A stretch of 64,000 bases of DNA from an uncultured Candidatus Rokubacteria bacterium (lineage in GTDB: Bacteria; Methylomirabilota; Methylomirabilia; Rokubacteriales; CSP1-6), in contig CAVYTA010000006.1 in NCBI GenBank assembly GCA_963771355.1, positions 2,016,001 through 2,080,000 of the forward strand, given 5' to 3'. This document shows, in pieces, positions 12,317 through 17,642 of this stretch. The notes beneath the pieces were generated by a model. It saw only the letters and a list, made by a program, of their open reading frames with translations, made no database searches and was not told where the DNA came from. A program made the position numbers and the translations under genes. Each line of letters opens with the position of its first letter. Position 1 is the stretch's first letter.

Positions 12317-12334
12317 TGTCTCAAAAATGAGACA
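12317..12334. promoter_or_regulatory. Palindromic candidate upstream activator sequence TGTCTCA-AAAA-TGAGACA
   Basis: Perfect 7-4-7 inverted repeat about 110 bp upstream of a sigma54 -24/-12 element. Confidence 0.65.
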
Positions 12335-12413
12335 AGGCGGCGGATCCAGCGTGTCCGCCATACCACGGACTTCCGGGCTTCGACTGCTGAATGGATCGAA
12401 TATATCGTAGACG

Positions 12414-12426
12414 AATCAGATACTTG
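12414..12426 (+). promoter_or_regulatory. IHF-type binding site
   Basis: AATCAGATACTTG fits WATCARnnnnTTR and sits in an AT-rich patch between the palindrome and the sigma54 site. Confidence 0.6.
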
Positions 12427-12444
12427 TATCGTTTCAGGTTTGGG

Positions 12445-12460
12445 TGGCACCTCGCTTGCT
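12445..12460 (+). promoter_or_regulatory. Sigma54 (-24/-12) promoter of lpxC
   Basis: TGGCAC-CTCGC-TTGCT matches the TGGCAC-N5-TTGCW consensus exactly. Confidence 0.85.
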
Positions 12461-12476
12461 CTCTAGCGGCGCGGCC

Positions 12477-13407: not shown

Positions 13408-13455
13408 CCTTCCTCGTCGCTCCCGTCCCCGAGGGAGCGATATAATGGTGCGGCC

Positions 13456-14022
13456 GTGGCCCAGCGCACCCTTGTCCTCTGCGCCCTCATCCTGTCCCTG
13501 CTCGCGGGGCCGTCGCCGGCCTGGGCCGAGATCCGCATCAGCAATTTGGCCGTCTTCTTCAATGACTTCGAGGTCACCGTGCAGGTCGTGCTCCTGGGCG
13601 CCATCCCCGCCCCGCTGCACGAGAGCCTCCACTCCGGGGTGCCCACTCATGTCCGCTTCCACGTGGAGCTCTGGCAGTACAGCCGGTTCTGGGTGGAGCG
13701 CCTGATCCAGCGCCGGACGGTGGAGCGGCAGCTCACCTACAACGTGCTGACGAAGGAATATCGCGTCACCTCGGTCGAGGGCGAGCAACGCGAGCCCTAT
13801 CTCACCAAGAACCTCCGCGAGGCGCAGCGCGTGCTGTCCGATCTGCGCGTGGCCCGGCTGGCCCCCGGCGCCGCGCTGGACAGCAAGGAGCTCTACTACG
13901 TCCGCGTGCGCTCCGACGTCTCGCTGAACGGCGACAACTCCTTTGTCTCCCGGATGGCGGGCGATGCCGCCGAGACCCCGTGGGTGCAGTCCACCCTCCT
14001 CACGCCCATCCGGAGCCAGTGA
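13456..14022 (+). CDS. Exported DUF4390-like protein
   Basis: Signal peptide ending AWA; LHSGVP..VRFHVEL..LTYNVLTKEYRV; directly upstream of an ntrY-like kinase; TATAAT at 13441-13446. Confidence 0.75.
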   Translation: MAQRTLVLCALILSLLAGPSPAWAEIRISNLAVFFNDFEVTVQVVLLGAIPAPLHESLHSGVPTHVRFHVELWQYSRFWVERLIQRRTVERQLTYNVLTKEYRVTSVEGEQREPYLTKNLREAQRVLSDLRVARLAPGAALDSKELYYVRVRSDVSLNGDNSFVSRMAGDAAETPWVQSTLLTPIRSQ

Positions 14023-16271
14023 TGCCTCTCGCCGGCTCCTCGCCGCAGGCCGAGCAGGGGAAGCGCAAGCGCAATCTCATCCTCATCAGCGCGACCCTCG
14101 TCATGCTGATCGTGGGCAGCATCTTCCAGTTCGCCCTGCGCGCCCCGCAGCTCCCGGTGGCGTCGAACCTGGTCGTCCTCGCGCTCCTGAACCTCAACGT
14201 CATCGTCTTCCTGCTCCTCCTCGTCCTCCTCTTCCGCAATCTCGTGAAGCTGGGCTTCGAGCGCCGCCAGAAGGGCATCGGCGCCCGCTTCAAGGTGAAG
14301 CTCGTCCTCGCCTTCCTCTCCCTCGCCCTCGTCCCGAGCATCCTGATCTTCATCATTGCCTCCAATTTCATTACGACGTCGATTGAAGGTTGGTTCAAGC
14401 CGCAGGTGGAGCGGCCCCTGGACCAGGCCCTCGAGGTCGCGCAGACCTACTACCAGACGCTCGAGACCACCGCGCTCCGCCATGGCCGCTTCATGGCTCG
14501 CGTGGTGGAGCGCGAGGGTCTCATGTCCGATACCCAGCGCGAGCCCCTCGAGGCCTTTCTCGGCGAGCAGCGCGACCGGCTCGGGCTCTCCGCGTTGACG
14601 CTGTTCGACCGGCGCGGCCACGAGGTGCTGCACGTCAAGGATCCGGCTCTGGGGGGGGTGGGCACCCGCGCCATCGCCCAGGGGAAGGTCGCCCAGGGCC
14701 TGGGTGGCCAGGAAGTGACCACCGTCCAGGAGATCGAGAACGGCGACATGGTCCAGGCGGTGGTGCCGGTGCGTGATCTCGACCGCGAGGTCATCGGCAC
14801 CCTGGTGGTGTCCACCCACGTGGCGCAGCGTCTGGAGAATCGCCTCCGCGGGATCAGCCAGGCCTTCCAGGAATACAAGCAGCTCAAGCTGCTCAAGAAC
14901 CCCATCAAGGGCATCTACATCCTGCTCTTCCTGCTGATGACCCTGATCATCGTCTTCTCCGCCACCTGGTTCGGCCTCTATCTCGCCCGCGGGATCACCG
15001 AGCCCATCCAGATGCTCGCGGAAGGCACGCGCGAGGTGGCCGCGGGCAACCTCGGCTACAAGGTGCAGGTCCGCGCCGACGACGAGATCGGCATCCTGGT
15101 GGACTCCTTCAACCAGATGACCAGCGACCTCGGCTCCTCCAAGTCCAAGCTCGAGACCGCCTATTCCGACCTCCAGTCGAAACACGATGAGATGGAGATG
15201 CGGCGGCGCTACACCGAGACCGTGCTGGGCGCGGTGGCCACCGGCGTGGTCTCGCTGGATCCCGCGGGGCGCATCACCACCATCAACGGCGCCGCGGAGC
15301 GGATGCTCGGGATCCCCGCCCCTGGCGTGGCGGGGATCGCGGAGGCCTCCGTGTTCCGCCGGCCGGAGTACGCGGAGATCGCCGCCCTGGTGACCCGCAT
15401 GGCGCGGCTGCGTGAGGGGACGGTGGAGCGCGAGGTGCACCTGCGCCGCGACGGCCTGGCCATCACCCTCCTCGCCTCCGCCACCGCGCTCAAGGGGCCC
15501 GACGGCACCGACATGGGCATGGTGCTGGTCTTCGACGACCTCACCGAGCTGCTCAAGGCGCAGCGCCTGGCCGCCTGGCGGGAGGTGGCCCAGCGCATCG
15601 CGCACGAGATCAAGAACCCGCTCACGCCCATCCAGCTCTCCGCGCAGCGGCTGCGGCGGCGGCTGGGCGGGGACGGCAGCGCCGAGGAAAAGCGTCTCCT
15701 CGAGGAGGCCACCTCCACCATCATCCAGGAGGTGGACGGGCTCAAGCAGCTGGTGGACGAGTTCTCCCGCTTCGCGCGCATGCCCGCGCTGGCGCTGCGT
15801 CCCACCGACCTCGCGCGGCTGCTCGACGGCGTGTGCGTGCTGTACCGCGAATCGCATCCCGCGCTGAGCATCAAGTCCGCCTTTTCCCCCGACCTGCCCC
15901 CGATGGAGGTGGACCCGAACCAGATCAAGCGCGCGGTGCTCAACCTCGTGGACAACGCGGTGGAGGCGGTGGGGGAGTCGGGGGAGGTGGTGGTGGAGAC
16001 GATCTGGCTCCCCGACGCGCGGCGCGCCCGCATCGCGGTGGCCGACACCGGGCCCGGCATCGCCGGCGAGGACAAGGAGCGTCTCTTCGTGCCGTACTTC
16101 TCCACCAAGGCCACCGGCATGGGCTTGGGGCTGGCCATCGTCCATCAGATCGTGACCGACCACGGAGGCACCATCTGGGTCGAGGACAATCTCCCGCAGG
16201 GGAGCCGCTTCGTGATCGAGCTGCCCGCGGGCCGCCTCGCCGCCGCGCCCCCCGCGCCGGTCGAGGCCTGA
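14022..16271 (+). CDS. ntrY: NtrY-like sensor histidine kinase (TM, HAMP, PAS, HisKA, HATPase)
   Basis: AWREVAQRIAHEIKNPLTPIQLSAQRL, NLVDNA, DTGPG, GMGLGLAIV. Confidence 0.9.
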   Translation: MPLAGSSPQAEQGKRKRNLILISATLVMLIVGSIFQFALRAPQLPVASNLVVLALLNLNVIVFLLLLVLLFRNLVKLGFERRQKGIGARFKVKLVLAFLSLALVPSILIFIIASNFITTSIEGWFKPQVERPLDQALEVAQTYYQTLETTALRHGRFMARVVEREGLMSDTQREPLEAFLGEQRDRLGLSALTLFDRRGHEVLHVKDPALGGVGTRAIAQGKVAQGLGGQEVTTVQEIENGDMVQAVVPVRDLDREVIGTLVVSTHVAQRLENRLRGISQAFQEYKQLKLLKNPIKGIYILLFLLMTLIIVFSATWFGLYLARGITEPIQMLAEGTREVAAGNLGYKVQVRADDEIGILVDSFNQMTSDLGSSKSKLETAYSDLQSKHDEMEMRRRYTETVLGAVATGVVSLDPAGRITTINGAAERMLGIPAPGVAGIAEASVFRRPEYAEIAALVTRMARLREGTVEREVHLRRDGLAITLLASATALKGPDGTDMGMVLVFDDLTELLKAQRLAAWREVAQRIAHEIKNPLTPIQLSAQRLRRRLGGDGSAEEKRLLEEATSTIIQEVDGLKQLVDEFSRFARMPALALRPTDLARLLDGVCVLYRESHPALSIKSAFSPDLPPMEVDPNQIKRAVLNLVDNAVEAVGESGEVVVETIWLPDARRARIAVADTGPGIAGEDKERLFVPYFSTKATGMGLGLAIVHQIVTDHGGTIWVEDNLPQGSRFVIELPAGRLAAAPPAPVEA

Positions 16272-16274
16272 GCC

Positions 16275-17642
16275 ATGGCCGGCGAGCACATCCTCATCGT
16301 GGACGACGAGCGGGCCATCCAGTCGACATTGCGGGGGGTGCTCGAAGACGAAGGCTATCGCGTGAGCGCGGTGGGCTCCGCCGCGGAGGCGCTGGCCGGG
16401 CTCGCCGACGAGACGCCGGATCTCATCTTCCTCGACATCTGGATGCCGGGCATGGACGGGCTGGAGGCCCTCGCCGCCATCAAGCGGCGCCAGCCCGAGT
16501 CCGCGGTGGTGATGATCTCCGGTCATGGCACCATCGAGACCGCGGTCAAGGCCACCAAGCTGGGCGCCTACGATTTCATCGAGAAGCCGCTCTCCCTGGA
16601 AAAGACGCTGCTGGCGACGGTGCGGGCGCTCGAACACTCGCGCCTCGAGCGCGAGAACCGCGCCCTGCGCGAGCAGCTCGACCGCGGCCAGGAGCTGGTG
16701 GGCAAGAGCGCGCTCATCGACGAGCTGCGGGCGCAGATCGCGGTGGCCGCGCCCACCAACGGACGCGTGCTCATCCACGGCGAGAACGGCGCCGGCAAGG
16801 AGCTGGTGGCCCGCGCCATCCACACCCGTTCCGCCCGCCGCGAGGGCCCCTTCGTCGAGGTGAACTGCGCCGCCATCCCCGAGGAGCTCATCGAGTCCGA
16901 GCTCTTCGGCCACGAGCGCGGCGCCTTCACCGGCGCGGTGGCGCGCCACCGCGGCAAGTTCGAGACCGCCAACGGAGGCACCCTCTTCCTCGACGAGATC
17001 GGCGACATGAGCCTCAAGACCCAGGCCAAGGTCCTGCGCGCGCTGGAGGAGCAGGCCTTCGAGCGGGTGGGCGGAAAGGAAACCGTCCGCGTGGACGTGC
17101 GGGTGCTCGCCGCGTCCAATCAGGACCTCGAGGAGCAGATCGCCCAGGGTCGCTTTCGCGAGGATCTCTTCTACCGGCTCAACGTCATCCCCATCGAGGT
17201 TCCGCCGCTCCGCCGCCGCAAGGAAGATGTCCCCGCCCTGGTCGAGCATTTCATCGTCCTGTTCTCCGCCGAGAACGGCAAGCGCTTGAAGACGATCTCG
17301 GTGGAGGCCCTCGCCTACTTTCTCGCCTATGACTGGCCGGGCAATGTCCGCGAGCTTCGCAACATGGTGGAGCGCCTCGTCATCATGGCCCCCCGCGACG
17401 TCATCGGGCCCGAGGACCTCCCGCCCCCGCTCCGGCCCAAGGAGACACCCACCGGCGCCGACGAGGTCCAGCGCGAGAAGACGCTCAAGGAGGCGCGCGA
17501 CGCTTTCGAGCGCGCCTTCATCCTCGCCGAGCTGCGCGCCCACGAGGGCAATGTCACCCGCACCGCCGAGAAGCTCGGCATCGAGCGGAGCCACCTCTAC
17601 CGCAAGCTGAAGGGGTACGGCATCACCCCGCCGAAGAGCTAG
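16275..17642 (+). CDS. ntrX: NtrX-like sigma54-dependent response regulator
   Basis: Receiver domain (LDIWMP), GENGAGKE, intact [22 protein letters not shown] and a Fis-type HTH. Confidence 0.92.

Follow-up and report, generated by a model that had tools for sequence, protein, structure and literature searches.

A conserved sigma54 promoter of lpxC and its probable control by a neighbouring DUF4390-NtrY-NtrX system in an uncultured Rokubacteria bacterium

In an uncultured soil bacterium (Candidatus Rokubacteria, 5.5-Mb genome), lpxC, which encodes the enzyme of the committed step in making outer-membrane lipid A, appears to be transcribed from a conserved sigma54 enhancer promoter. Its probable activator is the neighbouring regulator NtrX; the sensor kinase NtrY likely governs NtrX phosphorylation, with a DUF4390 protein as modulator. 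The circuit is a new member of an already known kind and its core is not new; sigma54-activator control of lpxC in Desulfovibrio vulgaris, named in the first-pass annotation of this DNA, is a correct precedent, which makes the finding here less new. What is added is an 18-bp register for the Desulfovibrio motif and its recurrence at lpxC across groups, and the sequence data point to a dedicated transcriptional switch acting on lpxC in a number of large groups from soil and sediment. Coordinates are positions in the window, the 64-kb stretch of DNA that was analysed, and footprinting used the lpxC promoters of Rokubacteria-type relatives, around 50 per count.

The lpxC promoter and the genes downstream

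Table 1. Positions of the promoter elements and genes in the window
Feature	Position	Strand	Description
UAS1, distal activator site	12317..12334	.	18-bp palindrome TGTCTC-N6-GAGACA; begins 128 bp upstream of the sigma54 site
UAS2, proximal activator site	12350..12367	.	weaker palindrome CGTGTC-N6-ACCACG
IHF-like bending site	12414..12426	+	AATCAGATACTTG; WATCAR-N4-TTR
sigma54 -24/-12 promoter of lpxC	12445..12460	+	TGGCACCTCGCTTGCT; GG...TGC kept 51/51
lpxC	12478..13407	+	PF03331 in three pieces; 3' end approximate
-10 box of likely separate sigma70-type promoter for DUF4390-ntrY-ntrX	13441..13446	+	TATAAT; conserved
DUF4390 (PlrP-like) protein	13456..14022	+	188 aa; PF14334, E 2e-20
NtrY-family sensor kinase	14022..16271	+	749 aa; NtrY_N/HAMP/PAS/HisKA/HATPase domains
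NtrX-family sigma54 activator	16275..17642	+	455 aa; REC-AAA-HTH

The region upstream of lpxC has the layout expected of a sigma54 enhancer, in which tandem palindromic sites lie 80-160 bp upstream with a bending site between. The genome encodes rpoN, and TGGCACCTCGCTTGCT is one of its 22 strict sigma54 matches; the sigma54 site is retained in all 51 lpxC promoters of relatives. The bending site AATCAGATACTTG conforms to WATCAR-N4-TTR, not to the stricter WATCAA form, and 35 such WATCAR-type matches occur in the genome, which also carries five HU/IHF-family genes. With up to one mismatch, an IHF-like site is found in 24/50 relatives' promoters against 1.3 expected, and 22 of these 24 fall 28-31 bp upstream of the sigma54 site. 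Both elements lie where the first-pass annotation had put them, as does its palindrome at 12317; the second activator site, at 12350, had been overlooked.

That palindrome is not evidence by virtue of being perfect, as 15 with 7-bp arms and a 4-bp spacer occur in the window; it is taken as real because it is conserved across relatives. UAS2 lies 33 bp, or about three helical turns, past UAS1, and paired 18-bp sites spaced 32-34 bp apart recur in 49/49 relatives' lpxC promoters, although the spacing was not imposed. The UAS1 sequence, TGTCTCA-AAAA-TGAGACA, is present in a single copy and is the genome's top single site (23.5 bits, on a matrix built without this genome), while the lpxC site pair scores 32.9 bits against 21.5 for the runner-up pair; among the 238 sigma54 candidates in the genome, the best after lpxC reaches 17.5 bits. 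Footprinting and a motif scan, two of the checks suggested with the first-pass annotation, bore it out, in that the motifs are conserved among relatives and lpxC is the best match genome-wide. The pair scan of the genome yielded no convincing further regulon members. The second-best pair (C6:1814560) has the appearance of a sigma70 -35/-10 promoter and was rejected as a regulon member; to judge by their N-termini, the genes on either side of it are lgt-like and tolQ-like.

The three genes announced downstream of lpxC, encoding an exported DUF4390-like protein, a kinase and an activator with intact GAFTGA, are present and their domains were confirmed. DUF4390 follows lpxC in 48/50 relatives. 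The TATAAT ahead of it, not remarked upon earlier, is kept in all 48 relatives with DUF4390 in view (47 TATAAT, 1 TAGAAT) and occurs just 62 times in the genome. The DUF4390 protein has the PlrP-type layout, with an export-signal-like N-terminus (hydrophobic residues 5-19, read as a signal peptide) and its gene directly 5' of ntrY, the start of which overlaps the DUF4390 stop. Its predicted fold is an FnIII/Ig-like beta-sandwich (model pLDDT 95), the best structural match aligning 91 residues (Z 9.3, rmsd 2.4) with FnIII-type domains. A fold search for ligand clues gave no Foldseek match at E 0.001 and generic FnIII folds only, and an Atlas search returned only DUF4390 clusters. NtrY has three N-terminal hydrophobic helices, a periplasmic domain at about 113-296, a fourth helix, HAMP and PAS, and its H-box reads HEIKN (H528). 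NtrX carries D54, Walker A/B, GAFTGA (216) and a Fis-type HTH with a recognition helix; its best NCBIfam model is the NtrX equivalog (522 bits, below the 600 cut-off), and its best PDB match is 5M7N (E 1e-122).

Connecting NtrX with the activator sites

The genome encodes 24 sigma54 activators, several of them conserved across the order, of which only the neighbouring NtrX falls in a cross-phylum NtrX clade (SH-aLRT 100 in a quick tree). Known members of this kind of circuit are DVU2931/DVU2934 of D. vulgaris and Dde_3000/Dde_3003 of D. alaskensis, NtrY/NtrX pairs controlling lpxC; DVU2934 binds upstream of lpxC, its single DAP-chip target, and in a D. alaskensis ntrY mutant lpxC alone is upregulated (PMC3333781, PMC4045070, PMC4641369). 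Among 401 Desulfovibrionales genomes, the sole one carrying the published DVU2934 gel-shift site (G422) encodes a regulator that starts at the published DVU2934 primer and is the reciprocal best hit of the Rokubacteria NtrX (56%; 483 bits, the next activator reaching 369); its gene string also holds DUF4390 and NtrY. From these sequence comparisons, NtrX is the orthologue of DVU2934/Dde_3003.

The published 15-bp register of the DVU2934 motif failed to transfer to other genomes. It matches 1/30 Desulfovibrionales promoters, against 16/30 for an 18-bp register. Within the published gel-shift oligo lies an 18-bp TGT-N12-ACA site, with a score of 12.5 bits on the Rokubacteria matrix; the motif reads better as this 18-bp site. 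The lpxC promoters of Acidobacteriota, Nitrospirota and Desulfobacterota carry it too, along with a sigma54 site. The DNA signal recurs in five major groups (Methylomirabilota, Acidobacteriota, Nitrospirota, Desulfobacterota and Desulfovibrionales), and site scores persist in four other groups that keep the same NtrX recognition helix. In Burkholderiaceae, a sigma54 site at lpxC was absent in 25/25. In Myxococcota, a sigma54 site was called within 170 nt of promoter sequence in 2/17 lpxC promoters (a third, in G247, lies just outside those 170 nt) and an NtrX orthologue was found in 3/17; this 17-genome sample does not support lpxC as the reason for essential sigma54 in Myxococcus, and a paper on M. 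xanthus CrdS/CrdA proved a false lead.

Covariation between helix and site is suggestive of NtrX binding, though its instances are not independent. Where the helix reads GRVNLW, half-site position 4 is T in 56/56, compared with 15/96 in the ERSHLY group, a change that represents one event within the order. Across phyla the covariation is 32/44 versus 2/9 (naive p 2e-4), but independent pairs on supported branches number only two (sign test p 1, no power). In one genome (G065) NtrX is degenerate, with GAFPGA and an altered HTH, and lpxC has neither a sigma54 site nor an activator site; in G210 and G199 NtrX is intact, yet no sigma54 site lies directly before lpxC. A GTDB scan with the tandem TGT-N12-ACA pattern, a layout that other activators share, placed 17 of 119 before lpxC among the matches listed and was rejected as a specificity test, being too loose. 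Nor did NtrX stand out when activators were compared for co-conservation across five small genomes, using 30 of the matches listed.

A working model and its rivals

In the model we favour, phosphorylated NtrX dimers would occupy both 18-bp sites, which are separated by three turns, allowing an AAA+ ring to assemble which, with the help of an IHF bend, would open the sigma54 complex at lpxC, the main or perhaps only NtrX target. Judging from mutants in other bacteria, the main effect of NtrY would be that of a phosphatase damping lpxC, and this phosphatase would be held in check by DUF4390 through the NtrY periplasmic domain. The state of the envelope, at a guess outer-membrane or LPS status in the periplasm, would thereby adjust lipid A flux through transcription. 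The sensor genes probably have a sigma70-type promoter to themselves, which would free the sensor from dependence on its own output. Transcriptional control of lpxC is the likely arrangement, and a proteolytic layer is also possible given that the genome encodes a LapB-like TPR and CxxC protein (92 bits, below the cut-off).

Several other readings were considered. The sole lpxC copy in the genome is frameshifted several times in the assembly by single extra bases, a point overlooked in the first-pass annotation, as might be expected of a decaying pseudogene with a relic promoter, but those bases are absent from short-read contigs of near-identical organisms (97-99% alike), and the frameshifts are therefore attributed to assembly errors; with lpxC unbroken in 54/60 relatives and lpxB intact, the pseudogene was rejected, and this reading, already largely refuted, has almost nothing left to recommend it. 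It is also improbable that the promoter is real yet served by another sigma54 activator, the adjacency of DUF4390-ntrYX being inherited gene order. The number and conservation of activators in the genome would allow it, and TGT-N12-ACA tandems are also seen at promoters of transporter- and pilin-like genes (labels from N-termini), but NtrX is orthologous to DVU2934, which binds such a site, the site scores hold up in four other groups that share its helix, and in one locus (L120) the enhancer site has stayed with DUF4390-ntrY even though a gene other than lpxC lies between.

That same locus counts in favour of a third possibility, that the enhancer serves mainly feedback through a sigma54 transcript running into DUF4390-ntrY-ntrX, lipid A flux being set chiefly by LapB/FtsH-type proteolysis; no terminator-like site was found between lpxC and DUF4390, and the LapB-like protein would fit. 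We nonetheless give this little credence, as the sites stay with lpxC where ntrYX lies elsewhere (G047/L040, G422, and many Acidobacteriota and Nitrospirota), DUF4390 has its own conserved TATAAT, and ntrY loss raises lpxC mRNA in D. alaskensis. Finally, NtrX may activate lpxC while DUF4390 only supports the structure or folding of NtrY, or is a passenger, rather than serving as a regulator or sensor, which is unlikely but carries some weight. The fold is generic, without a ligand-binding relative; Dde_2999, in the DUF4390 position of D. alaskensis (identity from position and size), is classed as dispensable, a call resting on one insertion that is possibly polar on ntrY; and in 3/4 Desulfovibrionales ntrX regions read, no DUF4390 was found immediately ahead of ntrX. 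On the other side, DUF4390 immediately precedes ntrY in Rokubacteria, G077 and G422, with the stop/start overlap described above, and in Bordetella, where DUF4390 was described in 2026 as the third component PlrP, it limits the phosphatase activity of PlrS and is essential, tolerating deletion only when PlrS has lost its phosphatase or its PDC domain (PMC13001219). The role of accessory component given to DUF4390 in the first-pass annotation has genetic support in Bordetella.

Wider meaning and comparison with known systems

A broader reading, which we put forward tentatively and rate at a little under even, is that DUF4390-NtrY-NtrX constitutes a dedicated homeostat for lipid A of ancient origin, with one activator clade, one 18-bp site and one sigma54 lpxC promoter across five groups, that this was the original job of NtrYX, and that proteobacterial NtrYX/PlrSR are derived forms that have lost sigma54 output. 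If true, it would account for the essentiality of sigma54 in Desulfovibrio and perhaps also in Geobacter. The D. alaskensis genes classed as essential include rpoN, lpxA, lpxB and lpxK; lpxC has no insertion there and ntrX an edge insertion only; rpoN is essential in G. sulfurreducens, and the main text of that paper does not mention lpxC. Proteolytic control is treated in a 2025 review of lipid A regulation, according to which alphaproteobacterial NtrYX is no specific modulator of LpxC; the main text of the review gave no match for sigma54, Desulfovibrio or Aquifex. The 18-bp site and sigma54 promoter at lpxC offer a testable reason for sigma54 essentiality in Desulfovibrio, and the 18-bp register makes the true DVU2934 site a testable question. 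Under the homeostat reading, the signal sensed by DUF4390 and NtrY could for the first time be sought with a single-gene readout. For both the NtrY signal and the role of DUF4390, lpxC offers a one-gene reporter in a tractable host.

In Aquifex aeolicus, the sigma54 activator NtrC4 reportedly (in work by Vidangos in 2014) has a pair of sites ahead of lpxC. There is a likeness to Desulfovibrio, which shares an orthologous activator (GAFTGA, ERSHL helix), NtrY, a DUF4390 gene before ntrY, and a sigma54 promoter at lpxC with the same kind of site and a single apparent target; the Rokubacteria system differs in having lpxC directly adjacent, a gene string without the HD-GYP regulator, and an enhancer in which two sites are strictly arrayed at a distance of 32-34 bp. 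Like Bordetella PlrP-PlrS-PlrR, it has a DUF4390 gene overlapping the kinase gene, an HEIKN H-box, a periplasmic domain and a separate promoter ahead of the DUF4390 gene, but there is no rsmB upstream here, betaproteobacterial NtrX is without the AAA+ domain, and the main text of the Bordetella paper names no lpxC or sigma54 target (PMC13001219). Alphaproteobacterial NtrY/NtrX, as in Brucella, Rhodobacter and Caulobacter (PMC7240162, PMC12444477), similarly has an envelope regulon and lpxC mRNA that responds to NtrYX loss; there, however, NtrYX lowers lpxC, indirectly in R. sphaeroides, alphaproteobacteria have no DUF4390, and Brucella NtrX (5M7N), the best solved relative of the activator here, has lost GAFTGA. 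In E. coli the same committed enzyme is controlled post-translationally, by FtsH/LapB proteolysis of LpxC (PMC12444477), whereas the Rokubacteria circuit would be a dedicated transcriptional switch.

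The lpxC locus and its promoter

The association of lpxC with the adjoining DUF4390, ntrY and ntrX genes is well supported as a real feature of this genome (G000; 5.5 Mb, 70% GC, eight contigs, the window lying on C6), where the gene order runs hrcA-grpE-dnaJ-prmA-like (by ORF reading), rsmE, archease, a 161-bp gap, lpxC, DUF4390, ntrY, ntrX and a GNAT gene. The kinase contains NtrY_N, HAMP, PAS, HisKA (HEIKN) and HATPase domains, and the regulator, with D54, Walker A and B motifs, GAFTGA and a Fis HTH, has NtrX as its closest family. Elsewhere the genome encodes RpoN, an intact lpxB, five HU/IHF-family genes and a total of 24 sigma54 activators, 23 of them with a GAFTGA-like loop. 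Close DUF4390 homologues carry Rokubacteria/Methylomirabilota labels, and the stretch is also represented in soil and rhizosphere sequencing runs. In most relatives read, archease likewise lies 5' of lpxC, its stop codon often overlapping the distal site by eye.

The sole lpxC copy is spread over three frames in the assembly, and automatic annotation would label it a pseudogene; the gene is broken in the assembly and intact in the organism. The bases at 12545, 12741, 12856 and 12915 are absent from the short-read contigs of three of four runs (from three studies; lpxC lies outside the coverage of the fourth, and one run is possibly the source sample), those at 13213 and 13249 are absent in one run, and those at 13401 and 13452 in two. 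At least eight spurious single-base insertions are thus crowded into about 1 kb (12478-13452), with the adjoining genes reading through. An unbroken match over the full length of lpxC is present in 54 of 60 relatives; one has a split match and five have none.

Coordinates of features at lpxC and of related features elsewhere (positions in the window unless a handle is given)
Feature	Position	Remark
Archease gene	11873-12316	last base directly abuts the distal site (12317)
Distal palindrome	12317	exact sequence single-copy in the genome
Proximal candidate activator site	12350	CGTGTCCGCCATACCACG; iterative footprint search
IHF-like site	12414	
Sigma54 site	12445	
DUF4390 gene directly 5' of ntrY, experimentally studied Desulfovibrio-type operon	G422:C1:3033606-3034212	
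LapB-like membrane-anchored TPR protein, two CxxC motifs at its end	G000:C4, about 293070-294390 (outside the window)	92 bits; NCBIfam cut-off 363

The palindrome, IHF-like site and sigma54 site described 5' of lpxC in the first-pass annotation are all present. A perfect palindrome alone is not evidence, since 15 with 7-bp arms and a 4-bp spacer occur in the window. The phylogenetic footprinting that the annotation had proposed, run on the window's genome and 50 of the 54 relatives with an unbroken lpxC, found the sigma54 GG...TGC kept in 51 of 51 promoters (best match). An iterative 18-mer search, seeded with the window's palindrome and with no spacing imposed, gave an order-wide consensus of YGTYKC-N6-GMRACR, and the two best non-overlapping 18-mers lie 32-34 bp apart in all 49 promoters with enough upstream DNA. 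Offsets of the proximal site form about five clusters (-80, -93, -102, -111 and -123) in roughly helical phase, the kin not being independent, and 24 of 50 promoters contain an IHF-like 13-mer deviating at no more than one position (1.3 expected), which in 22 of them lies 28-31 bp 5' of the sigma54 site.

DUF4390 directly follows lpxC in 48 of 50 relatives, the exceptions being one contig end and the genome G047, where ntrYX lies elsewhere yet both activator sites are kept at lpxC. As DUF4390 has a TATAAT-type box in front of it in 48 of 48 cases, and the genome contains only 62 TATAAT in all, the sensor genes DUF4390-ntrY-ntrX likely have a separate promoter of their own; inspection of the intergenic stretch between lpxC and DUF4390 revealed no terminator, so read-through is also possible.

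The probable activator and its target

A genome scan for the motif, also proposed in the first-pass annotation and made with a matrix built without the window's genome, ranks the lpxC pair first at 32.9 bits, ahead of the second-best pair at 21.5 bits; the runner-up from the 238 sigma54 candidates reaches 17.5 bits. This ranking agrees with the single target reported in Desulfovibrio, where sigma54-activator control of lpxC, a precedent cited in the first-pass annotation, is confirmed by two studies: lpxC is the single DAP-chip target of the D. vulgaris regulator DVU2934 (Rajeev 2011, PMC3333781), and lpxC alone is strongly induced in a D. alaskensis ntrY (Dde_3000) mutant, its sigma54 start having been mapped (Kuehl 2014, PMC4045070). 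The former study also noted that in S. fumaroxidans lpxC sits immediately 5' of the orthologous operon, and it found the DVU2934 motif in Desulfovibrio only.

The published gel-shift site was found in one of 401 Desulfovibrionales genomes, G422, whose regulator (recognition helix IGLERSHLHRKL) starts at the published DVU2934 primer and has the window's NtrX as reciprocal best match (56%). Its gene is preceded by an NtrY gene (37%) and a DUF4390 gene, the latter not mentioned in the accessible portions of the published accounts of the Desulfovibrio system. A quick tree of 44 activator sequences groups 12 NtrX orthologues, drawn from Methylomirabilota, Acidobacteriota, Nitrospirota, Desulfobacterota and Desulfovibrionales, in a single clade (SH-aLRT 100); of the 24 activators encoded by the window's genome, the lpxC neighbour alone belongs to it.

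The 18-bp site across groups

The published Desulfovibrio oligonucleotide holds TGTGGT-GTGCAG-AACACA, 102 bp 5' of a sigma54 site and scoring 12.5 bits on the Rokubacteria matrix (TGT-N12-ACA); among Desulfovibrionales lpxC promoters, an 18-bp YGTK...MACR occurs in 16 of 30 and the published 15-bp GTGT-N7-ACAC in one of 30. We surveyed even samples of best-scoring LpxC loci, with groups named after the titled record serving as centre, thresholds of at least 9 bits for the sigma54 site and 10 bits for the activator site, and expectations from dinucleotide shuffles. Sigma54 and activator sites were found, respectively, in 24 and 14 of 30 Desulfovibrionales (expected 1.3 and 1.1), 25 and 21 of 29 Acidobacteriota (0.7 and 1.0; one unpublished genome omitted), 30 and 18 of 30 Nitrospirota (1.0 and 0.9), 24 and 15 of 30 Desulfobacterota (0.9 and 0.8), two and none of 17 Myxococcota, and none and six of 25 Burkholderiaceae (0.4 and 1.2). 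The searches came up without an LpxC in 19 of 37 Myxococcota genomes and in 7 of 41 from Desulfovibrionales; genome incompleteness may account for some of these. The tandem layout is not NtrX-specific: among 119 GTDB pattern matches listed, 17 precede lpxC (14 Methylomirabilota/Rokubacteria, three other groups), with median matrix scores of 28.8 bits at lpxC versus 10.8 elsewhere.

Five Burkholderiaceae loci (L364, L367, L370, L371 and L372) bear a YGTTGC-N6-GCAACR palindrome 5' of a TATAAT-type promoter and no sigma54 site. By pattern this is 5 of 25 against 0.1 expected, probably representing one clade; the palindrome may bind the betaproteobacterial NtrX, which lacks the AAA domain, or could form an RNA hairpin behind the upstream gene.

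Within the order, T occupies half-site position 4 in 56 of 56 cases where the NtrX helix is GRVNLW (14 Rokubacteriales-type genomes) and in 15 of 96 where it is ERSHLY (24 genomes), a covariation that is one evolutionary event. Families f3 and f4 of the order (e.g. loci L037, L041 and L048) combine the ERSHLY to GRVNLW change and position-4 T with an enhancer about 18 bp farther upstream. Beyond the order, the comparison drew on 53 genomes having both a sigma54 site and an NtrX match (some possibly paralogues); there, a site of at least 10 bits accompanies 32 of 44 E/D-R helices versus 2 of 9 altered helices (naive p 2e-4); this cross-phylum association is not significant because supported branches hold only two independent pairs, and some altered-helix genomes bear other TGT-N12-ACA palindromes.

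Individual genomes depart from the pattern. In G065, NtrX has GAFPGA and a degenerate HTH, and promoter signals are absent at lpxC; in G210 and G199, NtrX is intact, yet there is no sigma54 site right 5' of lpxC. In G068, a near-identical two-site enhancer (TGTCTCTAAAATGAGACA) with a sigma54 site (L120:655-3140) precedes a protein of 254 aa that matches no Pfam family, a TonB_C protein and then DUF4390-ntrY, and this genome's lpxC (L397) has no sigma54 site within the roughly 140 bp visible upstream. From its layout, L120 looks like a target swap, the enhancer staying with the sensor genes.

Proposed mechanism and known systems

Promoter anatomy, conservation and orthology being established, we propose that NtrX~P would bind both phased sites upstream of lpxC, that IHF would bend the DNA, and that sigma54 would then fire lpxC. 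By analogy with other species, NtrY would be phosphatase-biased and DUF4390 would restrain that activity; envelope state would therefore set lipid A supply. The accessory role that the first-pass annotation gave to DUF4390 gains support from homology: the protein is a putative accessory component because its Bordetella homologue PlrP limits PlrS phosphatase activity by genetics, likely via the PDC domain of PlrS, direct contact being only putative (Wolber 2026, PMC13001219). The DUF4390 survey in that paper centres on proteobacteria, and its accessible text leaves lpxC and sigma54 unmentioned. A structure model of DUF4390 (pLDDT 95, 102 sequences) shows an FnIII/Ig-like sandwich that carries inserts; its best structural match (Z 9.3, rmsd 2.4, 91 aligned) and the fold comparison gave no ligand clue.

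Transposon classes in D. alaskensis agree with the proposed mechanism, as rpoN, lpxA, lpxB and lpxK are expected essential and ntrY dispensable, with no insertion in lpxC and only an edge insertion in ntrX. A single insertion, possibly polar, puts Dde_2999, the gene in the DUF4390 position, in the dispensable class. A LapB-like protein is encoded, so proteolytic control of LpxC is also possible.

The lpxC circuit is also listed for Desulfovibrio by Kazakov 2015 (PMC4641369). NtrYX has a negative effect on lpxC in alphaproteobacteria (PMC7240162, PMC12444477) and a 2025 sigma54 survey, in its accessible part, has COG0774 enriched in Myxococcia only (PMC12316311). A literature search, with subscription papers mostly outside its reach, found DUF4390 named in few papers, no description of the cross-phylum 18-bp site, and no report tying DUF4390 to lpxC control or essential sigma54 to lpxC. 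Aquifex NtrC4 is said to run the same lpxC circuit. The core of the circuit is already known from Desulfovibrio, and the extensions described here are useful and testable.
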